From: a virus
Taxonomy: Duplodnaviria > Caudoviricetes
Strand: one strand, 5' to 3'
Length of the DNA stretch: 64,000 nt
IMG/VR virus record: IMGVR_UViG_3300042197_001060
Coordinates: 7,157 to 71,156 of that record
Positions 5,934 through 52,216 of the stretch are shown piece by piece. The notes under the pieces were generated by a model that was not told where the DNA came from, did no database searches, and worked only from the letters and a program-made list of their open reading frames with translations. The translations under genes and the position numbers were made by a program. Numbering within the stretch: position 1 is the stretch's first letter; each line of letters starts with the position of its first letter.

Positions 5934-7583
5934 TTATTCAATGATTAAATCTATTTTGTTACCCCTTGCATCAACTGCATCTGAAAGAACAAAGAAGAAT
6001 AATCCTGCTGTATTTGATAATTGAACCTTTGGTGTGAATATTAATTTGTAAGGAGTACCGGTTTTGATTCTAGCAGTTTTTAGCTGGTCAATAGAACCAA
6101 ATGTCAATCTACCACCATCGTTGGTTGAGAAATTGGTTACGGTATTTCCTGCATCAAATATAATGTTATCCAAATTTAATTTATTATTATCATAATCCAT
6201 AATAACTTGTAATCCTGCTAATTCTTCTTTTGTTAAATTTGTAGTTAATACAACCTTATTATTTTCCAAAGTAATTGATACATTTAATTTAGCAGTTTCT
6301 AAATCTTCAGTTCTATATGCCATTATAGATGGTACACTCATAGATTTTTTTAAATTCACCTCACCATTAATTGAATTTGTGAATTGACCAGCAGTTATTC
6401 TACTTGCAATTTCAGTTGGGTCTGATGAATGTGACCAGTTTAAATCACCACCCCATGCAAATACTGCGTAAACCTCTTTAATTGGTGTATCAATAGTTAC
6501 CTTATACTTTGGAATACCATCTAACCAACTTTGATTTAGTAAACCACTAAACCATCTCCAAGATGTTGCAGTGTTTGTTGGTATAAATGCGTTTGTAGAT
6601 ACATCTTGCCCCATTACATACGCAAAAGAATAATATGAATCTGATTCATTAAATGTATCATCGTTTTTGGTAATGTTACCCACTTTCTTTTCCAAATTAG
6701 AGTATGTAAAGAAGTTTGGAGTTCCACTAATATCGGTTTGTGAATGCCCTAAAAAAGCCTTATATGAATCAGATACTGTAATTACATTGTTCATCCAAGC
6801 TTTTGATGATGCAGGTGATACAAATACACCAACCTCATCCCCAACTTTTACTTGCGTTGTGAAAAGTGCTTCACCACTCGAATCTAATGGTAATTGTGCA
6901 ATTGATTGTTGTGAAAAATCAATAGTACCATCCGTTTTCAACTTCATTAACTGAACATAATGGTCTGTAATAGCGTATCCTTGTGGGAATAGTACTCTAA
7001 CTTTAAATTGAGATGTGTTACCCGTTACATTTGTTAATGATAAACTTGTAGCATTACGGGTGATAGGTGCGATATTTGCAGATGCATCACTAATAGCATA
7101 CGCCAAATCCAACTTATGAATATCATTATAAGTGTTCTGGTCTTTCAATACAAATTTTTGAGTTGCTATATCACCATTGATTGCAGCATCGGTTCTTTGA
7201 ACAGTCAATTGTCCAACATTCCAATCGGCATTTACTGCATACCCCCAAGGTGTAGTTTGATATTGTTCATATAAGCTAGTAGCTGCTTTATTTGGAGCTG
7301 GGGTGAATTTGTAGTTATCCCATCCAGTATAGAATGTTTGAACTGAATTACCTTGTGAGAATACCGTACTGTTTGGCACCATTGCAAGTGCTTTGTTATT
7401 GAACGAATATCTCAACCAAAAATAACGAGGAGTTGTAGTTCCTCTATCTATGGTATATTTTACAGTCAGAGTATCACCAACTTGATAAGGAGGTGCAGGT
7501 GTTACAGATTGTGACACGGTTATTTGACCGAAAGATATTAGAGATATTAAAAATATCCCTAAAAACAATAAGAATTTTTTCAT
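5934..7583 (-). CDS. secreted protein with cohesin-like and dockerin-like domains (paralog of 3647..5932 C-terminal half)
   Basis: Signal peptide; VGDTLTV...LRYSFNNKAL; ITVSD...FNESD...GGDLNWSHS; C-terminal LAGLQVIMDYDNNKL. Start placed at MKKFLL. Confidence 0.7.
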   Translation of the reverse strand: MKKFLLFLGIFLISLISFGQITVSQSVTPAPPYQVGDTLTVKYTIDRGTTTPRYFWLRYSFNNKALAMVPNSTVFSQGNSVQTFYTGWDNYKFTPAPNKAATSLYEQYQTTPWGYAVNADWNVGQLTVQRTDAAINGDIATQKFVLKDQNTYNDIHKLDLAYAISDASANIAPITRNATSLSLTNVTGNTSQFKVRVLFPQGYAITDHYVQLMKLKTDGTIDFSQQSIAQLPLDSSGEALFTTQVKVGDEVGVFVSPASSKAWMNNVITVSDSYKAFLGHSQTDISGTPNFFTYSNLEKKVGNITKNDDTFNESDSYYSFAYVMGQDVSTNAFIPTNTATSWRWFSGLLNQSWLDGIPKYKVTIDTPIKEVYAVFAWGGDLNWSHSSDPTEIASRITAGQFTNSINGEVNLKKSMSVPSIMAYRTEDLETAKLNVSITLENNKVVLTTNLTKEELAGLQVIMDYDNNKLNLDNIIFDAGNTVTNFSTNDGGRLTFGSIDQLKTARIKTGTPYKLIFTPKVQLSNTAGLFFFVLSDAVDARGNKIDLIIE

Positions 7584-15116: not shown

Positions 15117-16760
<1,644 letters not shown>

Positions 16761-29835: not shown

Positions 29836-30309
29836 TTATTTATTTTTTAATTGCGATGCTTCATCAATTCCTGTAGCAGGATTATATCGTGGAGTTAATG
29901 AAGTAATATCCATATCTAATTGAATTACTTTACCAAGCCCACTTAACTTATAAGTTCTATACGCTTCGTTTGTAATTATTGGAACTTTCATAACTACCTT
30001 TTGATAGAAGGCCTTTGCTCCACCTTTCATTTCTAACAGTTCGGTATCTTCATTTACAAACTTGCCAAAAAACTTTTTTATTAATTGAGGATTGATATTG
30101 GTTACTTTTACAGCATGTACAATATCTTTTACCTTTGAAACAAATAGTGTATATATAATTGGAGCAGTAGATTCACCGTATCTACCTTTAGTTCCATCTA
30201 TATATTCATATTCTTTTATAAGATAGAAATTTGCTCTTGTCATTTGATTTGGAACAATATAATTTCTATCATCTATAAATCGTCTATATAGTGGACTATA
30301 GTTTTGCAT
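29836..30309 (-). CDS. hypothetical protein (weak resemblance to DNA end-protector-like proteins)
   Basis: 157-aa ORF with an AYRTY motif; the assignment is tentative. Confidence 0.45.
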   Translation of the reverse strand: MQNYSPLYRRFIDDRNYIVPNQMTRANFYLIKEYEYIDGTKGRYGESTAPIIYTLFVSKVKDIVHAVKVTNINPQLIKKFFGKFVNEDTELLEMKGGAKAFYQKVVMKVPIITNEAYRTYKLSGLGKVIQLDMDITSLTPRYNPATGIDEASQLKNK

Positions 30310-31577
30310 TATTTATTTAACATTTTTAGTTTAGGTAATTGGAGTTGTTGGAACTTTGGTTGTATCTTACTATAAATACCATATTGATTCAAAATTCCAT
30401 CAAACAATTTAGTCATTTTTTCCAATCCAAAGTTTTGTTTATTTTGTTTGCCCAATTGTAAAGATGCCGTTTTGTGTTTGTCATAGTTCTTATAAACATC
30501 TTTTATGGATGATAATGCCTTTGAAATGTTTACATTAAACCATTGTGATTCTTTTAATAAGAATTGGTCTGCTGCTGATTCATGCACTGGTTTCAATTCA
30601 CCTTCCAATAAAACAGCTCCTTGCTTTAAGAAATCCAAATGTCCACTCCAATTAGATACAATTACAGGCTTACCCGTCAAACTAAACTCTAATAGGGGTC
30701 TACCAAACCCTTCACCCTTTGTAAAATTTAACATTGCTTTTACTTTCGGATGTTCGTATAATCCATTCATTTGAGATGGAGTTAAATCACCATGCAATAA
30801 GTAAACGGGAACTTGTCCATAATCTTTACCTAATACTTCTCTAATTTTTTTAATAGTGGTTTCTCTATCCATTACAGAGAATCCTGCTGAAGATGTTTTA
30901 AGAACTAATGCGGGTTTAACCTTTTCATTCTTAAATGCCATTGCGAATGTTTTAATCATCATTCCCACATTCTTTCTATCTTCTCCCAAATCACCTCTCA
31001 ACCAATGTCCTACGAATAGGAATGCAAACTCTTCTTTGATTGCATCTAATTCAGTAATATTCTCAAAGGTTTTGGTTCCAAAATCAGCTTCATCAAATCC
31101 TTCGAAAAGAATTTCAACAGGTTTTTGAATTCTATGTTGAGCAACTAATTGTCCGCTTTGTTTATCTTGCTCATTATATACCGTATCTACTAAACTTTTC
31201 TTTGAATGTTCGGACGGAACTATAATTAAATCCATTCGATTACATCCATGAATCCAATCTAATGCACAATGTGTAGTTTCGATTGCTGCAGTAATACCAA
31301 TGTTATAGAATCCCAAAGGTTGAAATTCATTTGGAACTGTAACTTGAATATAAATGTCAGGTTTTTCTGTAATCTGTGGGGTGATATTATCTACCGCCCA
31401 CTTATGAAATTGATTATCATAATTAAGAGCATCCATTGGGGTATTCCCCCAACGAGTGCTAATAATTTTAATATCAAACTTATCTAATTTATATAAAGAG
31501 TGTAACAAATCTCTCGCGTGGTCACCATATCCACTTCTTGTCGCAATTGGTGCCTGAAATACTAATGTTGGTTTCAT
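30309..31577 (-). CDS. GT4 (GT-B) glycosyltransferase
   Basis: TRSGYG, DRKN, KGEGFGRPLLE...GKPVI..WSGHLDF. Confidence 0.85.
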   Translation of the reverse strand: MKPTLVFQAPIATRSGYGDHARDLLHSLYKLDKFDIKIISTRWGNTPMDALNYDNQFHKWAVDNITPQITEKPDIYIQVTVPNEFQPLGFYNIGITAAIETTHCALDWIHGCNRMDLIIVPSEHSKKSLVDTVYNEQDKQSGQLVAQHRIQKPVEILFEGFDEADFGTKTFENITELDAIKEEFAFLFVGHWLRGDLGEDRKNVGMMIKTFAMAFKNEKVKPALVLKTSSAGFSVMDRETTIKKIREVLGKDYGQVPVYLLHGDLTPSQMNGLYEHPKVKAMLNFTKGEGFGRPLLEFSLTGKPVIVSNWSGHLDFLKQGAVLLEGELKPVHESAADQFLLKESQWFNVNISKALSSIKDVYKNYDKHKTASLQLGKQNKQNFGLEKMTKLFDGILNQYGIYSKIQPKFQQLQLPKLKMLNK

Positions 31578-31578
31578 A

Positions 31579-32961
31579 TTATAACTCTATTAACTTAAAT
31601 TTTTTCTTTGGTTTCCAATTTTCAAATGCTCCTTCCATACCATCTGATAGTGTTTTACACATTGCTTCTCTGCTCAACAAACCATCACCTAACATCCACT
31701 TTCTACCTTTTAATGTTGCTGCTTTTCTATCTTCTTTTGGAGTTAAATACCATTCCATAATCAATGGTGATATATCTTCGAAATCAACCCTATCATCAAA
31801 GATATAGGGAGTAGGAACTGAACCTGTAGTTGAACGAACTGGCCAAATTGGTTTAACCCAATCTCCCCAAACTACACCTGCTTTTTTATGTCTATCGTGT
31901 AATGAACCAATCTCTACATAATCTTCTGCGGTTAGTAATTTGCCAGTTGTAATATCTCTAAACCCACACTGGTCTTGCAATCCACCAGTCACTGTTACAA
32001 TAATTGGAGTTCCTGCCATTACTGATTCTGCAGTTGCTAATCCAAATCCTTCGTTAGATGCTACGTTAATTGTTACATCTCCCAAATTATAAAGATAGTT
32101 CAATTGTTCTTCTGTATATCGGTTTGGAGCAAATACTACATTTGTTTCAGGTGAACAACATTCTGCTATAGTTCTCGATAAATCCGTACCATGCTCTTCT
32201 ACTGGGTTAGTATGCATCAATAAACATACTTTACTTCTATGCTCTGGTGCTAATGCCTCCACAAATTTATCAAATGCAAGAATTACATCAATTGGTTGTT
32301 TTCTACGAATGTTTCTATTGTTCCAATATAAAACAAAATCGTATTCTTTATCACCAAATATTTCTTTTTTGAAACCAGCTGGTACTTCAACTGGCTTATA
32401 TAATTCCGAATTGATACCATGTGGTACATAACTCACTTGCCAATCAGCAGGTGGTGTCCAATGCTTTTCTTTATCCCATCCCCAAACTCTACGAGTAATC
32501 CCATAAGTTTGTTTTGAAATACATCCAATCCAATCACAACTTTCGTAATAATCTCTGTTGTATTTTGGGTCTGGTAAATCATCCCAAATGTGATAAAAGA
32601 AAAGGGGAACTGATTGACGAATTTCATGCTCAATTTCATACAACCAAATCCAATATCTCGGGTCTGTAAAGTGTAAGATTGCATCAGGTTTTTCTACCAT
32701 CAATAATTGACGAATAATGCCTGGATTTCCATAACCATCCGATGGGTAAATTTTTACATTCGCATCTTTTACACCCGTTTGTTCTCTAACACTTTCGTTT
32801 AAATCTAAAATCTTACCTGCTTCGGGATGTTTGATTGCTGCACCTAATTGAACCCAATCATATTTATCAACCGTTCCCATAACTAATTGTTTGGAAACAT
32901 TAGCGATGCCACTGGCCATTCGCAAGTCGTCCGATAATAATAAAATCTTCTTTTTTGCCAT
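31579..32961 (-). CDS. GT4 (GT-B) glycosyltransferase
   Basis: VPHGI, NRNIRRK, NEGFGLATAESVMAGTP...TGGLQDQ. Confidence 0.85.
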   Translation of the reverse strand: MAKKKILLLSDDLRMASGIANVSKQLVMGTVDKYDWVQLGAAIKHPEAGKILDLNESVREQTGVKDANVKIYPSDGYGNPGIIRQLLMVEKPDAILHFTDPRYWIWLYEIEHEIRQSVPLFFYHIWDDLPDPKYNRDYYESCDWIGCISKQTYGITRRVWGWDKEKHWTPPADWQVSYVPHGINSELYKPVEVPAGFKKEIFGDKEYDFVLYWNNRNIRRKQPIDVILAFDKFVEALAPEHRSKVCLLMHTNPVEEHGTDLSRTIAECCSPETNVVFAPNRYTEEQLNYLYNLGDVTINVASNEGFGLATAESVMAGTPIIVTVTGGLQDQCGFRDITTGKLLTAEDYVEIGSLHDRHKKAGVVWGDWVKPIWPVRSTTGSVPTPYIFDDRVDFEDISPLIMEWYLTPKEDRKAATLKGRKWMLGDGLLSREAMCKTLSDGMEGAFENWKPKKKFKLIEL

Positions 32962-38625: not shown

Positions 38626-41190
38626 TTAAAATGTAAAAAACTTTTTCGCAGTTTGTGTTTCAGTTGATGCTTTTTCCCACTTCAATGCTTTGTAAAAATC
38701 ATCTAATTTGTTTTCCAATTCTGCTTTGAAAATCATATCTCTATCTACATATTGTTCTACGAAGTCCATAATCTCCTTCGGGTCATTGTAATCTTTGAAT
38801 GCAACCGTATCTAATCCTAATGGGTTTTGTCTTAAATACACCCACTTAACCTTATCACCATCTCTAATTGGTTCGTGTTTAAACGGACAATCAAAGAATT
38901 TCAACAATCTATTATATGATATACCTGCTTTAACGTGCGCAGGAGTTCCTTTATCAAAGTTAGCAATCTGTAATCCACTATCTTTTCTCCACTTGCCATT
39001 ATCGTATTTACTTAACTCCTTAATAGCTCCACCCTTCGCAATTTTATTAACAGGTAAAGTCATCATACTCTTTTTGAAATCCAATAACTTCTTATCAACA
39101 TAATCATTATCTTTTCCCATTAGAATATCTTTCAGCATACCACTCATATAATCCTGAAATGCTTTTGGGAACGATGAACGAACTACATCCAATCCTTTAA
39201 CATCTAGCTTATCACAAGGAATACCATTTTTTAGAATCATCCATTGTGCGTATCTTTTCTTTGCTACCCAAAATCCTGCTTTACTAATGTATTCCTTCTT
39301 AATTTCAAATCGATGTTTATCTTTTGGAATACAGAAGAATCTTTCCGCTAATAAATCATAAAATGAATTCAAAAAAGTTTGGGTTTCATCTGCTATAATG
39401 TTGACCTCCTGTGCCATTCGGTTTTGGTCAAATGTTTTATATTCTGGATAACGATGTTTTACCAATGGTTCTGCCATCATATAGATTGAATCGGTATCGA
39501 TATACACATTGTAATCTTCTTTAGTACCTAACTCCTTATTATATTTGATGTTAGCCATTTCAGCAGTTTTCTTAATTACAGTCTGACCCGTAATCGTAAC
39601 CGCTTCTGCATTATCAATATCATAAAAACGAAATGCTGGTAATCCTAATACTCCATACATCGAGTTTAGAAGAATCTTTTGTACCAATTGTCTTTTAGCA
39701 TAGAATTCATACTTTTCGGTATCACCTGCTTCACCATATTGCTTCTCCAACTTTCTGAATTCAACACGTTGTTTAAACCATGTATCCAAAATATCTGCAA
39801 TCAATCCTGGTTTATCCTGATTATACAACACTCCGTTTGCAGCTACTCCTAAATTACTATCTTTGATTACATCTTTTAATTCTTCTTTGGTGTAATCATA
39901 TGTATCACCACCTGCACCTACAATCGTATACCTATTATTTCCACCTCTAACCCAATGTTCTGCATCCCAATCTTTAATCTTTCCAATTTTGGTTTCAGGT
40001 GAAATGTTTAGGGTCATAATGATTGATGGATATAGAGATGTTAAGTCCAAGTCATAAATCCAATCATACTTTCCAACGATGGGTTCTTTTACATACGCTC
40101 CGATGAACTTCTCTTCGTTATTATCACGAAGTGCCTGCATCTTCTCTTTCCTATCCTTTGGTTTATTTGGTGCTACTAAACCTTTCTTTTTCAAATACGC
40201 TAAACACGCACCCTCTAAATACTTTGATGAGAACATATAATCTTCATACGGTACAAATCCAGCGTGGCAGATTGCTCTACATAACTCAATGAATTGTAGT
40301 TTCTCATCCATTGATACAACCAAGTCTACATCGACAATGTTGTACTCAATAAACTTTTCTAAATCATTCTCAAACAAATCATCCAAACTTCCTTCATACT
40401 CAATCTTACCTCTACCCAATTCTTTGGTAGCAATGTGATTTAGAGTATAGGATGATTCTAATCCATAGTTATAGTTCTTATACAGATTGATATAATCTAA
40501 AATAGATACACCCGCAAAACTCCACTTCTGTCGGTAAGGTGAATAAAAGGTTTGTCCAATTGGAGATAATCTTTTAGCATGTCCCTCCCCACATACATTC
40601 TTAATACGATTGTAAAGATATGGAATATCAAAGAAATCAATGTTCCAACCTGTTAGAATCGTTGGATTAACTTCTTCATAATAATTAAGAAATGCAATTA
40701 GAAGATTTTTTTCATTATCAAAAATATGCAGTTTGACATCTCTACCATCTTTACTGAATTGTTTTGCATTGTTTTTAACTTTCCTTGCTTTATCTAACAC
40801 AAATACATCATACAATTTAGTCACACCATCATGCGATGCTATTGCAGTAATTTCATTTTGTGCAAATTGAGTATTAGGCAACCCACTAACCATTTCAACT
40901 TCTATATCAAAGGTCATTGTTCTGTTTCCTTTTGATGGAGTGTCGGAATCGTATATATCAACTAATACTCTAGTGGTTTCGGGTACATCTGATTCAAACA
41001 AATCTTCAGCTTCATCCTTTTCCCACTTTGAAATACGAGTCAATCTATCACCATGCATTGATGTATGCTGACCGTACGGGTCTTTCTTATATGCATACTT
41101 TCGATATGGGAATGTTTGATAACCATTTGTATCATCCCATAGATGGATAAGATTTTGGGTTCTTTCGTAAAATATATTTTGGTATGCCAT
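38626..41190 (-). CDS. family B DNA polymerase (T4 gp43-like)
   Basis: Exonuclease motifs FDIE, GWN...FDIPY, YNIVD; polymerase motifs DLTSLYPS, KILLNSMYG, YIDTDS, KKRY. Confidence 0.97.
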   Translation of the reverse strand: MAYQNIFYERTQNLIHLWDDTNGYQTFPYRKYAYKKDPYGQHTSMHGDRLTRISKWEKDEAEDLFESDVPETTRVLVDIYDSDTPSKGNRTMTFDIEVEMVSGLPNTQFAQNEITAIASHDGVTKLYDVFVLDKARKVKNNAKQFSKDGRDVKLHIFDNEKNLLIAFLNYYEEVNPTILTGWNIDFFDIPYLYNRIKNVCGEGHAKRLSPIGQTFYSPYRQKWSFAGVSILDYINLYKNYNYGLESSYTLNHIATKELGRGKIEYEGSLDDLFENDLEKFIEYNIVDVDLVVSMDEKLQFIELCRAICHAGFVPYEDYMFSSKYLEGACLAYLKKKGLVAPNKPKDRKEKMQALRDNNEEKFIGAYVKEPIVGKYDWIYDLDLTSLYPSIIMTLNISPETKIGKIKDWDAEHWVRGGNNRYTIVGAGGDTYDYTKEELKDVIKDSNLGVAANGVLYNQDKPGLIADILDTWFKQRVEFRKLEKQYGEAGDTEKYEFYAKRQLVQKILLNSMYGVLGLPAFRFYDIDNAEAVTITGQTVIKKTAEMANIKYNKELGTKEDYNVYIDTDSIYMMAEPLVKHRYPEYKTFDQNRMAQEVNIIADETQTFLNSFYDLLAERFFCIPKDKHRFEIKKEYISKAGFWVAKKRYAQWMILKNGIPCDKLDVKGLDVVRSSFPKAFQDYMSGMLKDILMGKDNDYVDKKLLDFKKSMMTLPVNKIAKGGAIKELSKYDNGKWRKDSGLQIANFDKGTPAHVKAGISYNRLLKFFDCPFKHEPIRDGDKVKWVYLRQNPLGLDTVAFKDYNDPKEIMDFVEQYVDRDMIFKAELENKLDDFYKALKWEKASTETQTAKKFFTF

Positions 41191-41195
41191 TATGT

Positions 41196-41345
41196 TTAAT
41201 CTATACCCAATTTTTCACACAACTCATCATAAATTTGTTGTCCATTTTTAGACAATCTATGATAATCGAATCCCAAATCATGTATCAATAATTTAATCTC
41301 TTTTAACAAGTCTCTAGTTGCACTTTCACTATATGATGCTTTCAT
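41196..41345 (-). CDS. small hypothetical protein (49 aa)
   Basis: Manual translation MKASYSESATRDLLKEIKLLIHDLGFDYHRLSKNGQQIYDELCEKLGID. Confidence 0.55.
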   Translation of the reverse strand: MKASYSESATRDLLKEIKLLIHDLGFDYHRLSKNGQQIYDELCEKLGID

Positions 41346-41357
41346 TTTTTATAATTT

Positions 41358-42929
41358 TTATGGTTTGTAGAAAATAAAGATTGGTTCATATTTGTAAGAT
41401 GTACCACCTATTTTCATACTATTTTTCACTCCACTCAAATCTACCCCAGTCATTGGAGACATTGTCATTCTCAACTTACCTTTATACTCCATTCCTAACT
41501 CAACCAATATATCAATTGAATCTTGCTCCAACGTCCACCACTTATCAGAACCAACTTTAATATCGGCAATGTTCCAACAGATGTATCTATCGTTTCGTAA
41601 ATACTCATACGCAGTTGTTAAAGTAGGTAGTAGGAATCCATCTCTCCAACTATCGTAATTATTGAACTTCTTAAATGATTGAGATTCATCATCTGAATAT
41701 CTCTCTCTATCAAAGTAAGGTGGTGATGTAAATACAAAATCTAGTTTACCTTTGTATTTCTCAAATCTGGCATCTAAATGAATTATTTCAGAACCCGTTG
41801 TAAATATTTCATACGTTGATTTATGCCCCCAAAATGGATTTGCAGCTCCAGGTACTTTACTATTAAAGAATTCACCTAAATACTCATACCTAGTCTTTTG
41901 AATTTCAGGAATAAAATTTTCAGTATTTGGGTCATTACCAATATAATGAATATTTCTATCATCCACACTCAATGCACCTAATATCCTACCACCCCAACCT
42001 GCCGATGGGTCATATACATTGATTACATCTTGCGTTTTAATGTGTTCTGTAAATCTTTGATACAGATACTTCGCAGTTAGTGGTGGAAAATTAACCGCAG
42101 CCTGTGTTCCCATACCAATTCTAAATGCTGCAGTTGCTTCTGGAAAGATAGTTTGACCAAACGGATATGTTTTAATCTGTATAGGTTGTTTTGGAATATC
42201 AACTAAATTGTCAATATTATCTCCCCAATCCGCAGTTTTAAGTGATGAGATATTTTCATACTTTAATATACCTGCTTTGTATAAATCTTTTACTTCCTGC
42301 GCAGTAATTGGTGGTGATGGTACTTTACTATCTGCCTGTGATAAACAAAATCCATGTCCTTCTTGAACTTCACCCGCTGCCCATCTTTCAATCCATTCCT
42401 TGCCACTCTGAATATGTGAGTTATGAAAATCTTTGTGATTTAAGTGTAGGGTTTTAGAAAAACGATACATACCATCTTGCCTAGTCAATCTTCGCATTTG
42501 CTTAATAAACTCTGGCAAATATGCATCATCTACAAATATATCATAAATGGATGGTTTTGGTTTATCGTATGATGAACCACCAATACCAGTCTTATACATT
42601 GCAGGGAAGAATTGATTTACAGGTGTAGCGAATTTATTGAAGTTAAAAATTACTTCATTACCATCATCATCTTTTTCTTCAAACTTATCTACTTTATAGG
42701 TTTGTAGTTTAGAAAAGTTCTCAATGATTTCAGCTTCATCTATACCAATTTTAGGTGGAGCATCGGTTGCTTGCCATCTTTGAACGGCAGTTTTACGAAA
42801 GAATGCCACCCACTCTTCAAATTGAGTGAATGACATTTTTAATACATCTTCGTATTTAAGATTTATTTCAGGAGAATAAATCCAATCGTTTCTTTCGTAA
42901 AAATACTTCTTTGTATAGTTGAAGCTCAT
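41358..42929 (-). CDS. amino-type DNA methyltransferase (N4-C/N6-A)
   Basis: Motif I YDPSAGWGGR and motif IV FTSPPYF. Confidence 0.8.
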   Translation of the reverse strand: MSFNYTKKYFYERNDWIYSPEINLKYEDVLKMSFTQFEEWVAFFRKTAVQRWQATDAPPKIGIDEAEIIENFSKLQTYKVDKFEEKDDDGNEVIFNFNKFATPVNQFFPAMYKTGIGGSSYDKPKPSIYDIFVDDAYLPEFIKQMRRLTRQDGMYRFSKTLHLNHKDFHNSHIQSGKEWIERWAAGEVQEGHGFCLSQADSKVPSPPITAQEVKDLYKAGILKYENISSLKTADWGDNIDNLVDIPKQPIQIKTYPFGQTIFPEATAAFRIGMGTQAAVNFPPLTAKYLYQRFTEHIKTQDVINVYDPSAGWGGRILGALSVDDRNIHYIGNDPNTENFIPEIQKTRYEYLGEFFNSKVPGAANPFWGHKSTYEIFTTGSEIIHLDARFEKYKGKLDFVFTSPPYFDRERYSDDESQSFKKFNNYDSWRDGFLLPTLTTAYEYLRNDRYICWNIADIKVGSDKWWTLEQDSIDILVELGMEYKGKLRMTMSPMTGVDLSGVKNSMKIGGTSYKYEPIFIFYKP

Positions 42930-42930
42930 T

Positions 42931-43650
42931 TTATGCAGTTAATTGTACTTCTACCAAATAGTAGTTTGCAGTGAAATCATCAATTTTGAATTCAACATGC
43001 GCTAATCCTGAAGTAGATATTTTCAACACTACGGAAGTAGCTTCTTTGTTTGCAGAGAAAATTTCTTTAAGATACTTTGCAGAGAATGAAATAGGTTTAA
43101 CTTCTTCTGTGTATTCTTTATTAACCGAAAATTCAATTAGAGTTGAATTTACATTTGAATACCCCAACACAAGTTTCAATTCGTTGTTTTTTGTAAGAAC
43201 GGTAAATGTATCAACATCAGATAATGCGTTTTTAGCTTTGATAAACTTATCAATAAATTTACCATCAAATCCAATTTCAACATCAAATTCAGGCAAAGAT
43301 TTCAAATCTGGAACTGAAGGAATAACTGCCAAATCTGCTAATTGAAATTGAGCTTTTGTATCATCACTTTTGATAAACAAACTTACCGCTTTTCCTTCAA
43401 CTTGCTGAACATCCAATTCGATATCTTCTCCTACAACTGATAACAATTTTATTAATTGAGATGTTGTGTAAATACCTAAATTAGGTGTTGTTTGTGTAAA
43501 ATTATCTAGTTGAATTTCACCTAATACTGTTTTATCATCAGAGATAAAACGAGTAACCAATTTACCATCTGCTGCTTTCCATGCAACAGATTCTACCAAT
43601 CCTGCCAAATTATACTTTTGGATAAATCTTGTAACTCTTGTTTTGTTCAT
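42931..43650 (-). CDS. sliding clamp (gp45/PCNA-like)
   Basis: 239 aa with clamp-like pattern (GIYTTSQLIKLLS, FSAKYLKEI, ISTSGLAHVEF, YYLV); lies between PolB and other replication genes. Confidence 0.75.
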   Translation of the reverse strand: MNKTRVTRFIQKYNLAGLVESVAWKAADGKLVTRFISDDKTVLGEIQLDNFTQTTPNLGIYTTSQLIKLLSVVGEDIELDVQQVEGKAVSLFIKSDDTKAQFQLADLAVIPSVPDLKSLPEFDVEIGFDGKFIDKFIKAKNALSDVDTFTVLTKNNELKLVLGYSNVNSTLIEFSVNKEYTEEVKPISFSAKYLKEIFSANKEATSVVLKISTSGLAHVEFKIDDFTANYYLVEVQLTA

Positions 43651-43674
43651 GTTTTTTTAAAATTTAATTGTTTA

Positions 43675-43705
43675 CGAATATAATATATTTTTTTGATATT
43701 TACAA
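43675..43705 (-). promoter_or_regulatory. Bacteroidota-type promoter
   Basis: Minus strand TTG-N20-TATATTCG. Confidence 0.65.
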
Positions 43706-43709
43706 GCCA

Positions 43710-44939
43710 CTATGGTTTTTTCCATACCCATACTGGCTCACAAAATGTTTTGTTTTTTGCTTCTTCCGCTTTTAGTAATGCTTCTTCGGTATATCGTTCT
43801 TCATCGCCATCTATAATCATTCCAGCACCTGCACTACCAGGTCTCTTTGCCATTTCCATACCCAAACAACCTTCATATTCTCCGCCTAAAGAAGCAATGA
43901 AATCGTTCATAGGGTTTGTAATTTCTTGATACCCCTTACCATCTCCTTTGGAAGATGCGTATACATCGGCAATGTTAATTGCTAAATACCCACCCTTTCT
44001 AATAGTAGGCCAAACCTTTTCGATTGTTTTGTGTAAGAATAATTTATTCCATGCATCAATGTTGTTGTATCTAACCCAACTCTGCGTATCATCATAAGAA
44101 TATCGCTCAACATTGAAGTACGGTGGTGAGCTGAATACAATGTCAAAGTAATCTGTATATTCGGAGTAATCCATATCTTCGGCAGGTGAACAATGAAATG
44201 TTGCTCTTTTATCTGTTTCAAAAAATCCATTATGTTTTTTGTAGAATTGAGCCTGTTGTTCATAAATTGGATGATTTTCTTTTCTCGGGTCAATCCCCAC
44301 ATAGTGTTCACCTTTTTCAGATGCCATAAATCCACACAATCTATCTCCCCATCCTGCCGAAATATCTAACACATTCTTTGCATCTACCATATCGTAAAGT
44401 GCTTTGGCAACATTGGGTTTGAATTGTGAGCAAATATATTTTCTTAAACTCAAACAAACTCGTAGTTCATTTCTCCCAACTGAATCGAATTTAAGAGTGT
44501 ATAACCCACCCATTAAAGATGTCATAAAATCTTTACTATTCCAAGTACGATATGGTCCAGGTGAAACTGTACCATCTACACTCCATCTGTTAGCCTGTTG
44601 AAAGAAATTGGATGCAGAATTACCAGTATTTAATCTTTTTACAAATTGTTGTTTACCTCTAAATGTTAATGGATATTTACTATCGGATGCTTTACGAGGA
44701 AACCATTCACCTTCTTTAAGTAGTTCGTTGTAACGAGTTCCTTTGAGTGCAAGGTATTCCTTTCTGGCTTCCGTTTCTGTGATTTCGGCATAGGGCAAAT
44801 CGTATTCCATACATACTTCTGCCAAAGATTCTTTTACATCATCTATTTCATATGTATTTTTTATATGAGTCCACTCCTCACTATTGATGTGAAGATATGG
44901 TTTCATATCTCTAAATTTATTAAAATACTCTATGAACAT
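43710..44939 (-). CDS. second amino-type DNA methyltransferase
   Basis: FKPNVAK, LDISAGWGDRL, FSSPPYF. Confidence 0.8.
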   Translation of the reverse strand: MFIEYFNKFRDMKPYLHINSEEWTHIKNTYEIDDVKESLAEVCMEYDLPYAEITETEARKEYLALKGTRYNELLKEGEWFPRKASDSKYPLTFRGKQQFVKRLNTGNSASNFFQQANRWSVDGTVSPGPYRTWNSKDFMTSLMGGLYTLKFDSVGRNELRVCLSLRKYICSQFKPNVAKALYDMVDAKNVLDISAGWGDRLCGFMASEKGEHYVGIDPRKENHPIYEQQAQFYKKHNGFFETDKRATFHCSPAEDMDYSEYTDYFDIVFSSPPYFNVERYSYDDTQSWVRYNNIDAWNKLFLHKTIEKVWPTIRKGGYLAINIADVYASSKGDGKGYQEITNPMNDFIASLGGEYEGCLGMEMAKRPGSAGAGMIIDGDEERYTEEALLKAEEAKNKTFCEPVWVWKKP

Positions 44940-45505
44940 ATTGTTTCTATATTTTTATCTGCAACTAATCTTAATCTATACACTATACCTTTGATAATAC
45001 CATCCTTTTTACTTGTCCAAAATATTTCAGAATCTTTTTCAAATCCATATCGATTGTAAAACTTAACCGCTTCATCATTATGCTCTCTAACGGTTAGAAA
45101 TAAGTTTTCAGCATGATGTGATTTACAATATTCTACAAATCTATCTAATACAATTTTAGCTGCACCTTTGACAGTGTCATTTGTTGCGATTTGGTGTAAA
45201 ATAAAATCTCCACGTTTTTTATATGTGGTTGCGTTTCTACTCATTTTTCCACTACTTTTATATCTTCCAAACGTTAATACCACACCATCCTGCAATATAA
45301 CTCCACCTTTTTCAAAATACTTTCGTAATTTAAAACCCTGCTTATATAGATGTGGAAATATCATTGGATACATATTGATAATACCCATAGCTTCTTCGGT
45401 TGCTAATTCCAATTCTTTTGTTGGATATTCATTTCCGAATTTATCACTTATTACTCCCGCTTTTACAATATTTAATGTATTGAAGAAATTTATAAATTTA
45501 CGCAT
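44930..45505 (-). CDS. GNAT-family acyltransferase
   Basis: LHQIA...KGAAK...LTVREHNDEAVKFYNRYGF. Confidence 0.85.
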   Translation of the reverse strand: MRKFINFFNTLNIVKAGVISDKFGNEYPTKELELATEEAMGIINMYPMIFPHLYKQGFKLRKYFEKGGVILQDGVVLTFGRYKSSGKMSRNATTYKKRGDFILHQIATNDTVKGAAKIVLDRFVEYCKSHHAENLFLTVREHNDEAVKFYNRYGFEKDSEIFWTSKKDGIIKGIVYRLRLVADKNIETICS

Positions 45506-46955
45506 ATTTAAAAAACTTATTTAGATTTAAAACGTCCTTATATAAAAATAGTGAATTTAATTGAGATTTCAAAGTCTTTTTCCTAGATTCTATTATCTCA
45601 CCAGTTCTTGCTCCCTTTGCAAAAAATACTTTAGGTCTGAATAATAACTCATCGGATATTTCTCCCTTAAATGCCGCTCTTAATAAAGGTTTCATATGCC
45701 CACCTTCTTTTTGATACAATGGCGGAATGTTTAGTGTATATTCTACAAAAGGTCTCCAACTATACGGAGTTCGGATTTCAACTGTCCCACCCCACATAAT
45801 GGACTGATTTGTTGTTAAAAAGTTTGTTTTATGCACATCCTTTACCAACTTTCTTCGGGCAACATCATAATCTTCAGGTCTCCAATGAAACGCTTGAATG
45901 TGTCCATAACTACCCCATATCTCATCGGAAAGGTCACCAGAAAATACTACCTTAAATCCTAACTCATTTATCTTCTTACCTAATGCAATTTGAGCGATAG
46001 CCGAACCCAAATTCTGCCACCTACTTTGCTCAATTACATACAGAGTTTCAGGAATTGCATTTATAACATCATCTTCAGTTAAAATGATTTCATGCAGTTT
46101 TACACCAAATTCCTTTGCTGCAATTCTTGCATATTTTATATCATCGTTTTTAGTATCACCGTCTCCCATTGATACTACAAATGCTTCGATTTGTGGATAC
46201 TTCTTTGATAAAAGGTATGTTGATATGACGGAATCAATGCCCCCACTTAAAATGGTACAAATAGGTACATCTGAAACCATCTTTACCTCTACCGCTTCTT
46301 CTAACATTTTTCTGATATTTTTAACAATGGTATCTCTATCATCATTTATAATTTCAGATGGTAATTCATAATAAGTTTTGATTGAATTTTCTAAAGTTTT
46401 GTAATTGTATTCTACAAAAGTACCTGGATAAACGGCTTTGACCTGTTTTTCATACAAATCAGAAATAGGCAATCCTTTCTTTTCAGAACAAAAAACCAAT
46501 TTACCATCATTATCAATTGCATACCAAAGTGGCAGTTCTCCTACATAATCTCTAACTAAAAAAGCAGTGTTGATTCTACTATCAACTATACAAAATGAAA
46601 ACATCCCATCCAATTCACCAAATGAGCCTACTCCATAATCTAAATATGCATTTAAAATTACTTCGGTATCTGATTTTGTTTTGAATGAAGTTGTTATACT
46701 ATCGCGTAATGTTTGAGTATATGCACTATCCCACAATTCTCCATTGTAAACAATACAAACGGTCTTATCTTCATTCCACATTGGTTGGTTTGCAGATGAA
46801 GATAAGTCCTGTATTGAAAGACGATTGTGACCGATATAGAAATCATCCACAACATCTACTTGCGAAGCATCTCTACCTCTATGAATTATTTTATTTAATT
46901 GAGTAAAGGTTTGTTCATTAGATGTAAACCAATTACCACCTATTATTCCACACAT
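45498..46955 (-). CDS. asparagine synthetase (glutamine-hydrolysing)-like amidotransferase
   Basis: N-terminal MCG, HRGRD, HNRLSI, NGE, SDTEV, LSGGIDS, SDE. Confidence 0.9.
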   Translation of the reverse strand: MCGIIGGNWFTSNEQTFTQLNKIIHRGRDASQVDVVDDFYIGHNRLSIQDLSSSANQPMWNEDKTVCIVYNGELWDSAYTQTLRDSITTSFKTKSDTEVILNAYLDYGVGSFGELDGMFSFCIVDSRINTAFLVRDYVGELPLWYAIDNDGKLVFCSEKKGLPISDLYEKQVKAVYPGTFVEYNYKTLENSIKTYYELPSEIINDDRDTIVKNIRKMLEEAVEVKMVSDVPICTILSGGIDSVISTYLLSKKYPQIEAFVVSMGDGDTKNDDIKYARIAAKEFGVKLHEIILTEDDVINAIPETLYVIEQSRWQNLGSAIAQIALGKKINELGFKVVFSGDLSDEIWGSYGHIQAFHWRPEDYDVARRKLVKDVHKTNFLTTNQSIMWGGTVEIRTPYSWRPFVEYTLNIPPLYQKEGGHMKPLLRAAFKGEISDELLFRPKVFFAKGARTGEIIESRKKTLKSQLNSLFLYKDVLNLNKFFKYA

Positions 46956-46973: not shown

Positions 46974-47237
46974 TTACTTTAAGTGTTCATTTAAAGCATT
47001 CATATATGTTAATTTAGAGGATACTCCAGTAAATCTTTCAACCTCTACACCATTTTTTTCAATTACAATTGTTGGTACTGAACGAATTGAGTATTTAGTA
47101 GCTTCAGTATATGCTTCATCCACATCATAATCTTCAAACTTTACATTTGAAAATTGAGTTTTAACTTCGTTAATTACGGGTGCTAATGTTCTGCATGGAC
47201 CACACCAAGACGCACTAAATTTCTTTACTGTTAACAT
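46974..47237 (-). CDS. trxA: thioredoxin
   Basis: WCGPC and SVPT. Confidence 0.92.
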   Translation of the reverse strand: MLTVKKFSASWCGPCRTLAPVINEVKTQFSNVKFEDYDVDEAYTEATKYSIRSVPTIVIEKNGVEVERFTGVSSKLTYMNALNEHLK

Positions 47238-47406
47238 ATTTTTTATTTTTTGGTTTTCCCTTTAATTTTTCAATTAACTTAAATTTTCGGACTTGCTTTA
47301 ATTTCCTATTTAATGGATTTTCGTTTTCTTCAATTCTATTTAGTTTTTTTTCTAACTGAATTAACTTTTTAGCTACTTTACCTTTATCAATTTTATTTTC
47401 ACTCAT
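47215..47406 (-). CDS. small basic hypothetical protein
   Basis: 63-aa Lys-rich ORF between nrdA and thioredoxin. Confidence 0.5.
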   Translation of the reverse strand: MSENKIDKGKVAKKLIQLEKKLNRIEENENPLNRKLKQVRKFKLIEKLKGKPKNKKYVNSKEI

Positions 47407-47422
47407 AATAATGTTTTTTTAT

Positions 47423-49204
47423 TTATCCTTCACAACTTACACATTCGGGGTCCATTGCTCTTGCCGCAATATCTCCTCGTAAAACTGATTCAGTTCTCAT
47501 ATAATATAACGTTTTTACTCCTTGTTTCCAAGCTTCCATATGGATTTGATTTATCCATTTTGGTTCCGCAGTTGCAGGAAACGCCAAGTTTAAAGAAACG
47601 GCCTGGTCGATATATTGTTGTCTTACACCGGCTTGTCTTACTAAATCTAATTGGTTGATTTCTTTAAATGTTTTGAATACATCTTTAACTGAATTACATC
47701 TATGTGCTCTTTCATCTATCGATACTTCTTTACATTCAAGTAACTTACCATCTGAAAAACAATAATCATCTAAAAAGTCCAAATCTTGTACTGAACCACC
47801 ATCTGCTAAAATCTTATCCCATACCTCTTTGGTATTTTTTCCAATCTTACGAAGTGCTCTTTCCAATTCAGGATTCTTTCTAATGAATGTGCCCTTTGCA
47901 GTTTGTTCTGTAAAAACATTTGCTGCCCAAGGTTCAATACCACTACTTACGTTACCACTCAATTTAGAGTTTGAAACAGTCGGTGCTACTGCTCTTAAAT
48001 GCGTATTACGGAAACCACTTTCTTTACACCATAGTGGTTCACCATATTCAGATGCCAAATCTCTACTTGCTCTTTCAGATTCAATCTTCATTTGGGAAAA
48101 AATCTTACGGGTTTCAAATTGAGCTTGCAATCCTTCGAATGGTAATCCTTTTTGTTGTAAGTAAGTGTGCCATCCCAATACACCTAACCCCAATGCTCTA
48201 CCTCTTTCTGCTGAACGAACTGAATTCTCAAATCCTTTCATATTTTTTGCTCTTTGGATAAACTCTTCCAATACACCATCTAAAAAGATAGTAGCAGTAT
48301 ATATCAAATCTGTATCTTTCCACTCATCGTATTTAGCTAAATTCAATGATGATAAGCAACAAACAAATGAATGTTGTTCATCGGTGTGTAGAACGATTTC
48401 AGAACAAATGTTAGTCATGTGAACTTTCAATCCATTCTTTTTGTACATATCAGGATTTGCTTTGTTTACATTTCCTTTGTACATAATGTATGGTTCACCA
48501 GTTGCTTTTCTTTTCTGAAGTATCTTACCCCATTTTCTACGAGCTTCCGAATCACCTTCTTCTACCTTTCTCATAAATCTATCACTAACTACAACACATT
48601 GATGTAAGTTAAGTGATTGACGATTCACATCTCCCTTTGGTTCTCTGATTTCTAAAAAATCTTCAAAATCCTTATGTTCTACTTTAATGTTTACCGATGC
48701 TGCTCCTCTACGAACACTACCCTGATTCGTTGCAAGTATCGTAGAATCGTATATTTTAGCAAATGGTACAATACCATCGGATGTTCCGTTGCCAGTAATT
48801 TTACTACCTGCTGGTCGAATCATATTGATACCAATACCAACTCCACCACCATGCTTTGCTAACAACATTAACTCCAAGTTCTTTGAACCAATTTCATAGA
48901 TACTATCACCTACATCAATACCGAAACATGAGATTGGTAAACCTCTATCAGTACCAGTATTTGATAATACAGGAGTTGCTAAACACAACCATCCTTTCCA
49001 AATGTAATCAAAGAACTTTGTTGCCAATTGTGGTTTCTCCAATCTTTTAGCAACTGCCGTAGCAACTCTCCAATATGCATCCTTTGGTTTTTCACCAGCT
49101 TGTAGGTAAGTTTTAGATATAGTTTTTACATATATCTCATTATTTCCCCAAGATGGGAAATCAACATCTACTTCCCATCCGTATTCTTCTCCGTAATTTC
49201 TCAT
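47423..49204 (-). CDS. nrdA: ribonucleotide reductase class Ia alpha subunit (short, no ATP cone)
   Basis: PISCF, TNICSEI, CCLSS, APTVS, KTLYY, C-terminal CVSCEG. Confidence 0.95.
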   Translation of the reverse strand: MRNYGEEYGWEVDVDFPSWGNNEIYVKTISKTYLQAGEKPKDAYWRVATAVAKRLEKPQLATKFFDYIWKGWLCLATPVLSNTGTDRGLPISCFGIDVGDSIYEIGSKNLELMLLAKHGGGVGIGINMIRPAGSKITGNGTSDGIVPFAKIYDSTILATNQGSVRRGAASVNIKVEHKDFEDFLEIREPKGDVNRQSLNLHQCVVVSDRFMRKVEEGDSEARRKWGKILQKRKATGEPYIMYKGNVNKANPDMYKKNGLKVHMTNICSEIVLHTDEQHSFVCCLSSLNLAKYDEWKDTDLIYTATIFLDGVLEEFIQRAKNMKGFENSVRSAERGRALGLGVLGWHTYLQQKGLPFEGLQAQFETRKIFSQMKIESERASRDLASEYGEPLWCKESGFRNTHLRAVAPTVSNSKLSGNVSSGIEPWAANVFTEQTAKGTFIRKNPELERALRKIGKNTKEVWDKILADGGSVQDLDFLDDYCFSDGKLLECKEVSIDERAHRCNSVKDVFKTFKEINQLDLVRQAGVRQQYIDQAVSLNLAFPATAEPKWINQIHMEAWKQGVKTLYYMRTESVLRGDIAARAMDPECVSCEG

Positions 49205-49212
49205 AATCTTTT

Positions 49213-50226
49213 TTAAAATATATCATCCCAATTTTCACCTTCTCCTGCCTTTGAATAATCAGTTGGTCTGATTGCAAAGAAGTCGGTATGTGTAACACCT
49301 CCCGTAAGATGATAAAACCAATCCAATTCAGATGCTTTCTTCTCATCAAATTCAAAGTAGTCATCTCCACCTTTGATTGGAGTATAACCCAATTCTGCTA
49401 ACTTCTCATTAACTCTTTTTGTAATGAATTCCTTTAGGTCATCTTTTTTAAGATTCTCCAAATCACCCATTTCAAAAATCTTATCAATGAATTTGTGTTC
49501 CAAATCTCTAATGATTTCAGCTGCTTGGTAGATATCAGCTTTTGCTTCTTCTAACAATTCAGGATACTCTTCACACATATGTCTGAATAACTGGCACCCC
49601 ATCTTTGAATGTAGGGATTCATCTTTTACACTCCATTTCATTTGTTGTCCAATTCCTTTTAATAGATTTCTCATTTGAAAACTATAAAGAACTGCAAATG
49701 ATGAATAAAGGGCTACACCTTCAGCAAATGCCGAAAAGATTGCCAGTGAACGTGCTACTTCAACTCTGGCTTTATGGTTAGTATCCAAATCCTTTGGAGT
49801 CCAATCAGCCGTTGTATTGGTTAATAATTCAAATCTCTCTTTCATAACTTCGTCATGCATAAAACCTGCGAAGTCATCTAATCCCAATGTTTCATTTAGA
49901 TAAGAATATGCAACTGAATGTATTGTTTCTTGAGAACCAAATGCGATTGCCATCTGACGGATTTCATGCTTTGGAAACCATTTAGTAACCATACCTGTCC
50001 AATAATCAGAAACGGCACATTCGGTTTGAGCAAATCCTAAAAGTATATTACCTACTAAATGTTTTTCTTCTTTTGTTAAATTCTCATTCCAATCTTTCAC
50101 ATCCATCTGCATTGGTATTTCAGTATGCAACCAAAAAGCCTGCATTTGTTTCAACCAACCCTCATTGTAATAATCTGAATATTCAAATGGTTTATATGGG
50201 ATTCTTTCTGTAAATAATTTACTCAT
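49213..50226 (-). CDS. nrdB: ribonucleotide reductase class I beta subunit
   Basis: ETIHSVAY, EGVALYSSF, DESLH, DFF..RPTDY. Confidence 0.95.
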   Translation of the reverse strand: MSKLFTERIPYKPFEYSDYYNEGWLKQMQAFWLHTEIPMQMDVKDWNENLTKEEKHLVGNILLGFAQTECAVSDYWTGMVTKWFPKHEIRQMAIAFGSQETIHSVAYSYLNETLGLDDFAGFMHDEVMKERFELLTNTTADWTPKDLDTNHKARVEVARSLAIFSAFAEGVALYSSFAVLYSFQMRNLLKGIGQQMKWSVKDESLHSKMGCQLFRHMCEEYPELLEEAKADIYQAAEIIRDLEHKFIDKIFEMGDLENLKKDDLKEFITKRVNEKLAELGYTPIKGGDDYFEFDEKKASELDWFYHLTGGVTHTDFFAIRPTDYSKAGEGENWDDIF

Positions 50227-51901: not shown

Positions 51902-52216
51902 TTATTTAACTACCATTAAAATTTCTGATTCTCTTAATAGGATATATTTGTTCCCACCAATTTTAATTTCTTGTCCTTGATGGTATGGTGGTAAAATCAC
52001 TTCATCACCTACTTGAACATTCATTGGAATCAATGTTCCACTTTGCGTATAAATACCAGGTCCTATTGATTCTACCTTTGCTCTTTTTACATCTTCACTT
52101 CTTACTGAATCGGGTATAATAATACCACCTGCAGTTTGTGAAACTTCTGGTTCTAATTCTGTTAGTAGAACTCTATCTCCTAACGGCTTTACTAATTTTT
52201 CTTTTACTTCTGTCAT
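51902..52216 (-). CDS. groES: co-chaperonin GroES
   Basis: KPLGDRVL, TAGGIIIPD, GPG, VGDEV, RESEIL. Confidence 0.95.
   Translation of the reverse strand: MTEVKEKLVKPLGDRVLLTELEPEVSQTAGGIIIPDSVRSEDVKRAKVESIGPGIYTQSGTLIPMNVQVGDEVILPPYHQGQEIKIGGNKYILLRESEILMVVK

Follow-up and report, generated by a model that had tools for sequence, protein, structure and literature searches.

Results

Linkage of the AsnB-like gene, the GNAT gene, and MT1

The stretch at positions 41358–46955 of a 64,000-nucleotide window (the whole stretch of DNA analyzed; positions 7,157–71,156 of IMG/VR virus record IMGVR_UViG_3300042197_001060) encodes an AsnB-like amidotransferase, a GNAT-fold N-acyltransferase, two paralogous methyltransferase-like proteins (MT1 and MT2), and a sliding-clamp-like protein. 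It may well belong to an island for the hypermodification of DNA or nucleotides, set within the replication operon of a large aquatic phage that is uncultured. The first three genes of the stretch in transcription order overlap: the AsnB-like gene (45498–46955; 485 amino acids (aa); Pfam Asn_synthase, 3.4e-44, and GATase_7, 4.1e-29) shares 8 nt with the GNAT gene (44930–45505; 191 aa; isoelectric point 9.4; Acetyltransf_1, 1e-6), which shares 10 nt with MT1 (43710–44939; 409 aa), assigned as a class I S-adenosylmethionine (SAM)-dependent amino-methyltransferase-like protein in which motif I precedes motif IV (SPPYF). These and all other genes given window coordinates below lie on the minus strand, which holds nearly all genes of the window.

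Relatives of the locus in IMG/VR are many and include four contigs of 202–289 kb rated complete. The first set of relatives held 102 loci on 86 distinct contigs, 52 of which carry an AsnB ortholog, defined in this set as a protein at least 70% identical. GNAT was the next gene after the AsnB ortholog in 52 of 52 contigs, and MT1 was the next gene after GNAT in 49 of the 50 that could be assessed; the sole exception, locus L065, has MT1 upstream of AsnB-GNAT with three genes between, and the family B DNA polymerase gene (PolB) after GNAT. A profile scan yielded a more distant set, with AsnB proteins 67–84% identical, in which GNAT followed AsnB in 25/25 assessable loci, 20 of them on contigs not counted before; in most of these loci, a 450–613-aa open reading frame (ORF) of no known family separates GNAT from MT1. 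GNAT is an obligate partner of the AsnB-like gene, and the pair forms a fixed two-gene unit. At least four gene orders retain the trio, namely thioredoxin (trx)-AsnB-GNAT-MT1-clamp-MT2-PolB, trx-PolB-clamp-x-x-AsnB-GNAT-MT1, trx-AsnB-GNAT-MT1-DUF6071-AAA, and HD-AsnB-GNAT-MT1-PolB. Because the trio is kept although its surroundings differ, its linkage exceeds what shared synteny explains. The initial annotation of this DNA had regarded these genes as coupled and proposed neighborhood conservation as a check; run on these relatives, the check found AsnB, GNAT, and MT1 linked.

A census that used MT1 queries alone and spanned −7 to +5 kb around each hit gave 73 assessable distinct MT1 contexts. 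At least one of the cassette families described in the next section lay near MT1 in 51 of the 73, an AsnB-family gene in 32, and AsnB together with GNAT in 17. GNAT was never seen without AsnB among these contexts, and AsnB without GNAT was always accompanied by a pyridoxal phosphate (PLP) enzyme (15/15). A literature search found no description of the AsnB-GNAT-MT1 trio, nor any that brought together asparagine synthase, hypermodification, phage, and methyltransferase.

Complex prediction for the AsnB-like protein with GNAT returned a score of 0.51, compared to 0.00 for the best of three controls; the runs agreed in at least 95% of contacts, and the partner predicted local distance difference test (pLDDT) value was at least 82. 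Of 80 solved complexes, 58 reached the mark used for such predictions, compared to 2 of 110 mismatched pairs; with a score of 0.60 or less, just 7 of the 80 solved complexes reached it, along with both mismatches that passed. We take the result as weak support for a complex.

An exchangeable slot upstream of MT1

The DNA just upstream of MT1 is a slot that holds interchangeable cassettes, with MT1 as the constant element; the thioredoxin gene (46974–47237; Pfam Thioredoxin, 8.2e-20) forms its upstream border. In the nearest relative, L084, the proteins encoded around the slot are nearly identical to those of the window (nrdA, 99%; thioredoxin, 98%; clamp, 96%; MT2, 98%; PolB, 99%), and the DNA is collinear at 92–93% identity through thioredoxin and ∼80 nt of the AsnB gene, as far as window position 46876. 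Homology resumes from position 44940, the base immediately preceding the MT1 start codon. Between these points, L084 carries a 516-aa AsnB paralog (41% identical), a D-2-hydroxyacid dehydrogenase, a PLP-fold protein, and a 756-aa ORF without an assigned family. In other relatives, the slot contains a 232-aa thymidylate-synthase homolog, a 501-aa AsnB paralog designated AsnB′ (35% identical), and a PLP-fold protein; elsewhere, it is filled by an HD-motif protein, by an ABC-ATPase-GNAT fusion, or by a PLP-fold protein accompanied by unknown ORFs.

Among solved proteins, the thymidylate-synthase homolog is closest to CMP (cytidine monophosphate) 5-hydroxymethylase (2.5e-5), with the catalytic Cys aligned, and a canonical ThyA coexists with the homolog in the same complete genome. 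This coexistence, together with the likeness to CMP 5-hydroxymethylase, marks it as a specialized pyrimidine C5 enzyme. The sister cassettes of the slot hold nucleotide-modifying enzymes, which agrees with the DNA-modification context suggested in the initial annotation, the modified base itself being a prediction.

In most other cassette types, ORFs of 420–822 aa lie directly upstream of MT1 (L084, 5720–7990; L095, 6354–7985; L052, 6199–8001; and L321–L342, after GNAT), and the lineage of the window has no such large ORF before MT1. These ORFs had no Pfam or PHROG match, and the four cluster representatives among 21 sequences showed no mutual similarity by BLASTP. Three tandem MT1 paralogs occur in a phage that is unrelated and has a family A polymerase (L102/L103, 5023–11582); interspersed with them are a QueC-like PP-loop protein, an ABC-ATPase-GNAT fusion (phrog_11143), and a canonical N6_N4 methylase. 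In L066, a similar ATPase-GNAT fusion adjoins MT1. The HD-motif protein has a weak Pfam match (0.007) and an invariant H...HHD...D pattern, and its profile gave only a chance-level match in the Protein Data Bank (PDB). Its gene adjoins AsnB-GNAT or MT1 in some lineages; in four of four complete relatives (L192–L195, corresponding to G001–G004), it is present far from the MT1 locus, and its adjacency to MT1 is therefore weak evidence.

The aspartate site of the AsnB-like enzyme

The best solved relative of the AsnB-like protein is Escherichia coli AsnB (1ct9; E 2.1e-45), with which it shares the N-terminal nucleophile (Ntn) glutaminase domain, the PP-loop, the S-G-x-x-S-D-E cluster, and an equivalent of Lys449; its C-terminus is ∼70 residues shorter. 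We compared 36 non-identical sequences of the ortholog cluster and 8 AsnB′ sequences. Throughout both groups, the glutaminase site is kept, with Cys2, R45, and N71-G72-E73 invariant, as is the adenylation site, with the L-S-G-G-I-D-S PP-loop and K442 (the equivalent of E. coli K449) conserved; the equivalents of D351 and E352 are kept as well. With the glutaminase and PP-loop residues intact, both half-reactions should work.

The aspartate site differs from that of E. coli AsnB. In the numbering of the E. coli enzyme, T-T-x-R is changed to Q-N-x-G, D384 to Asn, R387 to Thr, and E348 to Asp. The aspartate-site replacements are found in 35 of the 36 ortholog-cluster sequences; the sequence that departs from them is the L084-type AsnB′′ paralog, which falls in the ortholog cluster. 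Asn at the D384 position is common to all 36. The T-T-x-R motif of E. coli AsnB presumably takes part in aspartyl-adenylate (aspartyl-AMP) formation. In human ASNS, the equivalents of D384 and R387 (D400 and R403) are conserved active-site residues, and E364 and D367 are essential, according to excerpts of PMC6748925. The protein also failed the AsnB equivalog model NF006949, with 273.2 bits compared to a cut-off of 499. The AsnB-like enzyme probably carries out the same chemistry on a carboxylate other than that of free aspartate, one with a nearby amine, as judged from these residues. A Gat-QueC, or 7-deazaguanine, assignment was considered and rejected because QueC models matched at only ∼1e-3, compared to 3.4e-44 for Asn_synthase.

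Properties of the GNAT-fold protein

The Acetyltransf_1 match to the GNAT-fold protein (29.5 bits; cut-off 20.7) is confined to residues 111–155, which contain the C-terminal motifs; these motifs are typical of GNAT proteins and conserved in the family. The coenzyme A (CoA) pyrophosphate loop, with the consensus Q/R-x-x-G-x-G/A, reads T-V-K-G-A-A here and varies among 31 aligned relatives. The family is narrow, comprising 84 clusters that are all at least 47% identical, and its nearest named relatives are the N-α-acetyltransferases RimI, ARD1, and Naa50, all of them weak matches. Comparison of the GNAT profile with Mom of phage Mu by hhalign gave a probability of 0.13% (E 0.43), indicating no detectable relation, so the analogy to Mom that had been drawn from the sequence at the outset did not hold up.

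MT1, MT2, and the sliding-clamp-like protein

MT1 and MT2 (41358–42929; 523 aa) are paralogous over their catalytic domains, the C-terminal ∼240 residues (31% identity, E 2e-27). Both possess the D-x-S-A-G-W-G and SPPYF motifs and the long N-terminal extensions (∼170 aa in MT1 and ∼280 aa in MT2) recognized in the initial annotation. The two proteins score below the N6_N4_Mtase (PF01555) cut-off of 26.7 bits (20.2 for MT1 and 25.6 for MT2), some MT1 orthologs carry PF01555 in a precomputed table, and sequence searches of the PDB with MT1 and MT2 gave nothing meaningful. MT1 resembles the (D/N/S)PPY gamma-type enzymes (Trm11/TrmN/Trm14, RsmD, and the DNA N4-cytosine and N6-adenine methylases) in its class I fold with motif I before motif IV, but it differs from them in its unusual motif I (invariant G-W-G-D-R), its conserved 170-aa N-terminal region, for which no fold relative was identified, its membership in an almost wholly viral family, and its position below the N6_N4_Mtase cut-off.

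The MT1 family is very large, with 4614 cluster representatives at E ≤1e-3 and 178 at E ≤1e-30, most of the latter matching over nearly the full length. IMG/VR contains at least 586 MT1-family loci, from which the best 80 were taken per scan. The nearest ESM Atlas clusters are 94–100% viral (one lower-ranked row, 77%), and a profile search of genome contigs yielded, among the best 80 loci, mostly contigs of metagenome-assembled genomes or matches to the catalytic domain only. We aligned 71 full-length homologs chosen by length and coverage, regardless of gene context. The invariant residues are D192, G196-W-G-D-R200, D217, E254, S271-P-P, E278, Y280, W297, N322, and E401, along with S110 and R118 in the N-terminal region; S271-P-P-Y-F of motif IV and D192...G196-W-G of motif I are invariant or nearly so.

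The AlphaFold2 model of MT1 (pLDDT 93.3; predicted template modeling score 0.91) has a class I fold. Its best solved matches are the tRNA N2-methylguanosine (m2G) methyltransferases aTrm11 (Z 16.0, root-mean-square deviation (rmsd) 2.9 Å, 179 residues aligned) and TrmN (Z 15.9), and the best matches overall have Z ∼16 and rmsd values of 2.6–2.9 Å over 174–179 residues. The MT2 model is of moderate quality (pLDDT 71), with TrmN as its best fold match (Z 11.9); its N-terminal 280 residues match no assigned fold, and an ESM Atlas search with residues 1–275 gave a best score of 0.83, to unnamed viral clusters. In BFVD, the whole of MT1 matches giant-virus proteins labeled as N4-cytosine DNA methyltransferases (TMq 0.64–0.70). 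When 10 long MT1 homologs were scanned, leaving aside Methyltransf-type matches to the shared catalytic domain, seven had an additional helix-turn-helix (HTH), second N6_N4 methylase, or LAGLIDADG match, some of them weak, and three had no match.

The sliding-clamp-like gene (42931–43650; 239 aa) matches PCNA_C at 1.5e-4, its 22.4 bits falling just under the cut-off of 23, and it is separated from MT2 by 1 nt. In 30 of 33 distinct MT2 contexts, the gene just before MT2 is the clamp gene, which also adjoins PolB in most related loci that contain PolB; MT2 and the sliding clamp are genetically linked. The BFVD labels, the domain fusions, and the link between MT2 and the clamp together favor DNA as the putative substrate of MT1.

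Other features of the MT1 family were noted. The whole MT1 model also has a match (TMq 0.71) in the BFVD entry A0A3G5AD75, a 699-aa Satyrvirus protein that is labeled as glutathione synthase and in which an MT1-like module may be joined to an ATP-grasp amide ligase. Two homologs, P0128 (732 aa) and P0153 (631 aa), combine MT1-family sequence with a LAGLIDADG homing endonuclease (1.6e-35 and 1.1e-38), which suggests mobile endonuclease insertions in the family. In L014 and L099 (6613–7739), the MT1 ortholog is split into two ORFs (209 aa and the rest), possibly through a frameshift or an assembly error.

Organization of the locus and its relatives

The genes are transcribed in the order nrdB, nrdA, a 63-aa ORF, thioredoxin, AsnB-like, GNAT, MT1, clamp, MT2, a 49-aa ORF, and PolB. 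The ribonucleotide reductase (RNR) small and large subunits are encoded by nrdB (49213–50226; Pfam Ribonuc_red_sm, 1.2e-55) and nrdA (47423–49204; Pfam Ribonuc_red_lgC, 1.3e-94), followed by the 63-aa ORF (47215–47406), which is 93–95% identical in the nearest relatives L084 and L051. At the other end, the 49-aa ORF (41196–41345), read from the sequence, lies between MT2 and PolB (38626–41190; DNA_pol_B, 1.6e-34; phrog_262, 6.7e-183). All of the genes named in the initial annotation were found where it had placed them and in the same order, overlapping or nearly abutting on the minus strand. Pfam support is strong for AsnB, PolB, RNR, and thioredoxin, modest for GNAT, and sub-threshold for MT1, MT2, and the clamp; we regard the genes as real since orthologs are kept across at least 86 distinct IMG/VR contigs.

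The source is a 71-kb IMG/VR virus record with a completeness estimate of 32% and ∼30–33% G+C. A DNA search of 50,697 phage records with the 5.6-kb stretch gave no match. The best relative of PolB, at 49% identity, is that of Microcystis phage Mel-JY01, in which the PolB neighborhood consists of thioredoxin, two hypothetical genes, and PolB, without AsnB, GNAT, MT1, or MT2. Parts of all four of these genes are covered by contigs of two estuary RNA libraries; DNA carry-over is possible, and we therefore do not take this as transcription. Public runs containing the stretch are labeled as freshwater, estuary, lagoon, and seawater metagenomes.

Many relatives (e.g., L002, 4905–6761) have a 618-aa class II (B12-type) RNR-like gene in place of nrdA and nrdB, and some of those have a PhoH-like gene before thioredoxin. 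Elsewhere in the window are a GroEL-like chaperonin gene (15117–16736; phrog_5725, 2.1e-179) and a 104-aa ORF (51902–52216) that, judged by eye, is a candidate GroES co-chaperonin. Two adjoining glycosyltransferase-like genes (30309–31577 and 31579–32961; phrog_2170, 1.9e-20 and 9.5e-18) lie a few kilobases downstream of the replication genes and are kept in relatives; their products could act on DNA or on surface glycans.

Discussion

We propose that MT1 and MT2 are SAM-dependent enzymes of the amino-methyltransferase type that would most likely act on exocyclic amino groups of phage-DNA bases during replication, and that the AsnB-GNAT unit would be one of several interchangeable tailoring cassettes upstream of MT1. 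By analogy with the action of CmoY on 5-carboxymethylcytosine (5cxmC), the AsnB-like enzyme would adenylate a carboxylate carried by a modified base or nucleotide, then amidate it with glutamine-derived ammonia; an amine on this adduct would be N-acylated by GNAT, and together the two enzymes would neutralize a carboxy- or amino-acid-like side chain. All of the alternative cassettes represent amino-acid or 2-oxo-acid chemistry, suggesting an amino-acid-like handle. That MT1 would install this handle is pure conjecture on our part. The hypermodification pathway put forward in the initial annotation therefore stands in part: the gene linkage, the altered AsnB pocket, the sister cassettes, and the CmoY precedent support it, the Mom analogy has dropped out, and the modified base is a prediction.

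A more specific scheme, which we consider speculative and rather unlikely, makes MT1 a DNA exocyclic-amine carboxyalkyl transferase that would modify cytosine at N4 or adenine at N6 with either carboxymethyl or 3-amino-3-carboxypropyl, the latter derived from SAM. The cassettes would then sculpt the handle, with AsnB amidating its carboxylate and GNAT acetylating its amine to yield a neutral, diphthamide-like adduct. Such an activity would explain why the cassettes contain an AsnB paralog, PLP-fold enzymes, a 2-hydroxyacid dehydrogenase, and GNAT.

The closest precedent is that of Synechococcus phage S-B43, in which the AsnB homolog CmoY ligates glycine to 5cxmC in DNA, the 5cxmC being made by the C5-methyltransferase homolog CmoX using carboxy-SAM from the phage CmoA, as described in excerpts of PMC12783734 (2025). 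The three S-B43 genes, in the order CmoA-CmoY-CmoX, overlap end to end, and in both phages an AsnB-family gene overlaps or abuts a gene for a DNA methyltransferase-fold protein in a replication or nucleotide region. The sequence of events proposed here is likewise handle first, then ATP-dependent amide formation. The excerpted text of PMC12783734 also mentions a second ligase cluster with a glutaminase domain, which could not be expressed and is uncharacterized; the AsnB-like protein of the window (485 aa) also has such a domain, whereas SpCmoY (271 aa) does not. The systems differ further in that the partner here is of the SPPY amino-methyltransferase type rather than the SPPC C5-methyltransferase CmoX and in that GNAT is an obligate additional partner. 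The same excerpts report that no CmoA-associated N6-adenine or N4-cytosine carboxymethyltransferase was found. We considered a supply of carboxy-SAM by CmoA, and it was not supported: CmoA (TIGR00740) was detected in 0 of 4 complete relatives, the record of the window itself being 32% complete, and CmoA of the host could serve. The idea from the initial annotation that an AsnB homolog forms an amide on a carboxylated base in phage DNA now has a published precedent in CmoY (excerpts of PMC12783734), from which the chemistry in this phage would be an extrapolation.

The thymidine hypermodification clusters of phages M6, ViI, and PaMx11 offer a second comparison. According to excerpts of PMC8989533, a GNAT acts on hypermodified thymidine in DNA, PLP enzymes tailor the appended amino acids, and amidotransferases are associated with these clusters. 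The resemblance lies in the combinatorial use of PLP enzymes, GNAT, and associated amidotransferases in DNA-metabolism regions, and in the thymidylate-synthase-family hydroxymethylase homolog of the sister cassettes. The thymidine clusters are defined by a 5-hydroxymethyldeoxyuridine (5-hmdU) DNA kinase and the amino-acid:DNA transferase aGPT-Pplase, and the likeness was judged from the other parts; in contrast to those clusters, the constant element here is a methyltransferase-fold enzyme. The island fits the known logic of phage hypermodification with what would be a new set of parts.

The main rival explanation, which we regard as possible though doubtful, is simple co-location. MT1 and MT2 would be orphan DNA methyltransferases that protect the phage DNA by forming N4-methylcytosine or N6-methyladenine, and AsnB-GNAT would be an auxiliary metabolic module whose product is asparagine or, by a route like the AsnO/Ngg pathway to N-acetylglutaminylglutamine amide, an amino-acid amide that is N-acetylated. 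Several findings speak for this explanation and weigh against a hypermodification island. The AsnB-like protein narrowly passes the NCBIfam asparagine-synthase model TIGR01536 (278.5 bits, cut-off 267.1), and in addition to the intact glutaminase and PP-loop, it essentially retains the acidic S-G-(D)-x-S-D-E cluster, the binding site for the aspartyl-AMP α-amino group. TIGR03104 (N-acetylglutaminylglutamine amidotransferase) is among its matches, though far below the cut-off; excerpts of the virome literature list asparagine synthase as an auxiliary metabolic gene; and the AsnB homolog of Synechococcus phage S-SCSM1 sits among glycosyltransferases, not DNA enzymes. MT1 has no cassette family in reach in 22 of the 73 contexts and keeps the same invariant residues across contexts, as would suit a plain methyltransferase that works by itself and is no more than a neighbor of the cassettes, and MT1 and MT2 may be ordinary DNA methyltransferases. 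The AsnB-like protein is also much closer to E. coli AsnB than to SpCmoY (22% identity over 201 columns, pairwise E 1e-5), many of the linkage counts are not phylogenetically independent since the loci were found by searching close relatives, base modification in this phage is predicted from gene content, and CmoA was not detected in the four complete relatives. Against co-location stand the replacement of the T-T-x-R, D384, and R387 equivalents throughout nearly the whole ortholog cluster, the score far below the NF006949 cut-off, the placement of AsnB-GNAT between replication genes with MT1 staying beside the pair through rearrangements, and the hydroxymethylase-like thymidylate-synthase homolog in the sister cassettes. 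The initial annotation had proposed that the enzyme does something other than make asparagine; the altered aspartate pocket is in line with that proposal, and the TIGR01536 match means that the enzyme could still make asparagine.

A target other than DNA is improbable in our assessment. AsnB-GNAT would in this case modify either a base of tRNA or a replisome or virion protein, the protein at its N-terminus or at a carboxylate, and MT1 and MT2 would be RNA amino-methyltransferases. The solved folds nearest to MT1 and MT2 are indeed those of the tRNA m2G methyltransferases Trm11, TrmN, and Trm14, a further point against action on DNA bases; the nearest named relatives of GNAT act on protein N-termini, and JGI names some MT1 orthologs RsmD. 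The Trm11 and TrmN matches to MT1 are equaled to within one Z unit by unrelated class I methyltransferases, however, and the fusion of MT1-family members to DNA methylase and HTH domains, the labels of the viral full-length fold matches, and the position of MT2 after the clamp all argue for DNA. Still less probable is a Mom-like pathway, in which GNAT would put a carboxymethyl-type group on adenine N6 and amidation by the AsnB-like enzyme would turn this group into the carbamoylmethyl group of Mu. The chemistry is coherent, GNAT is basic, the complex prediction is weakly supportive, and in both cases a GNAT-fold protein is proposed to act on a DNA base to give an amide. Against this stand the lack of sequence or profile similarity between GNAT and Mom and the fact that MT1 is left without a role; to our knowledge, Mu needs no AsnB-like partner. 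We continue to favor a DNA or nucleotide hypermodification island in which AsnB-GNAT would tailor a base adduct beside MT1.

Phage DNA hypermodifications defeat restriction and CRISPR defenses and are a source of new DNA-labeling enzymes. The sole characterized AsnB-type DNA amide ligase, according to the excerpted literature, is CmoY (2025), which works with a C5-methyltransferase homolog and CmoA. What is new here is a glutaminase-bearing AsnB that is always paired with a GNAT, located beside a member of a very large viral amino-methyltransferase-like family in a slot that is swapped between near-identical phages. If the proposed reading is true, abundant freshwater and estuarine phages would harbor a family of undiscovered DNA base chemistries, and virome asparagine synthase genes that are counted as auxiliary metabolic genes may be DNA-modification enzymes.

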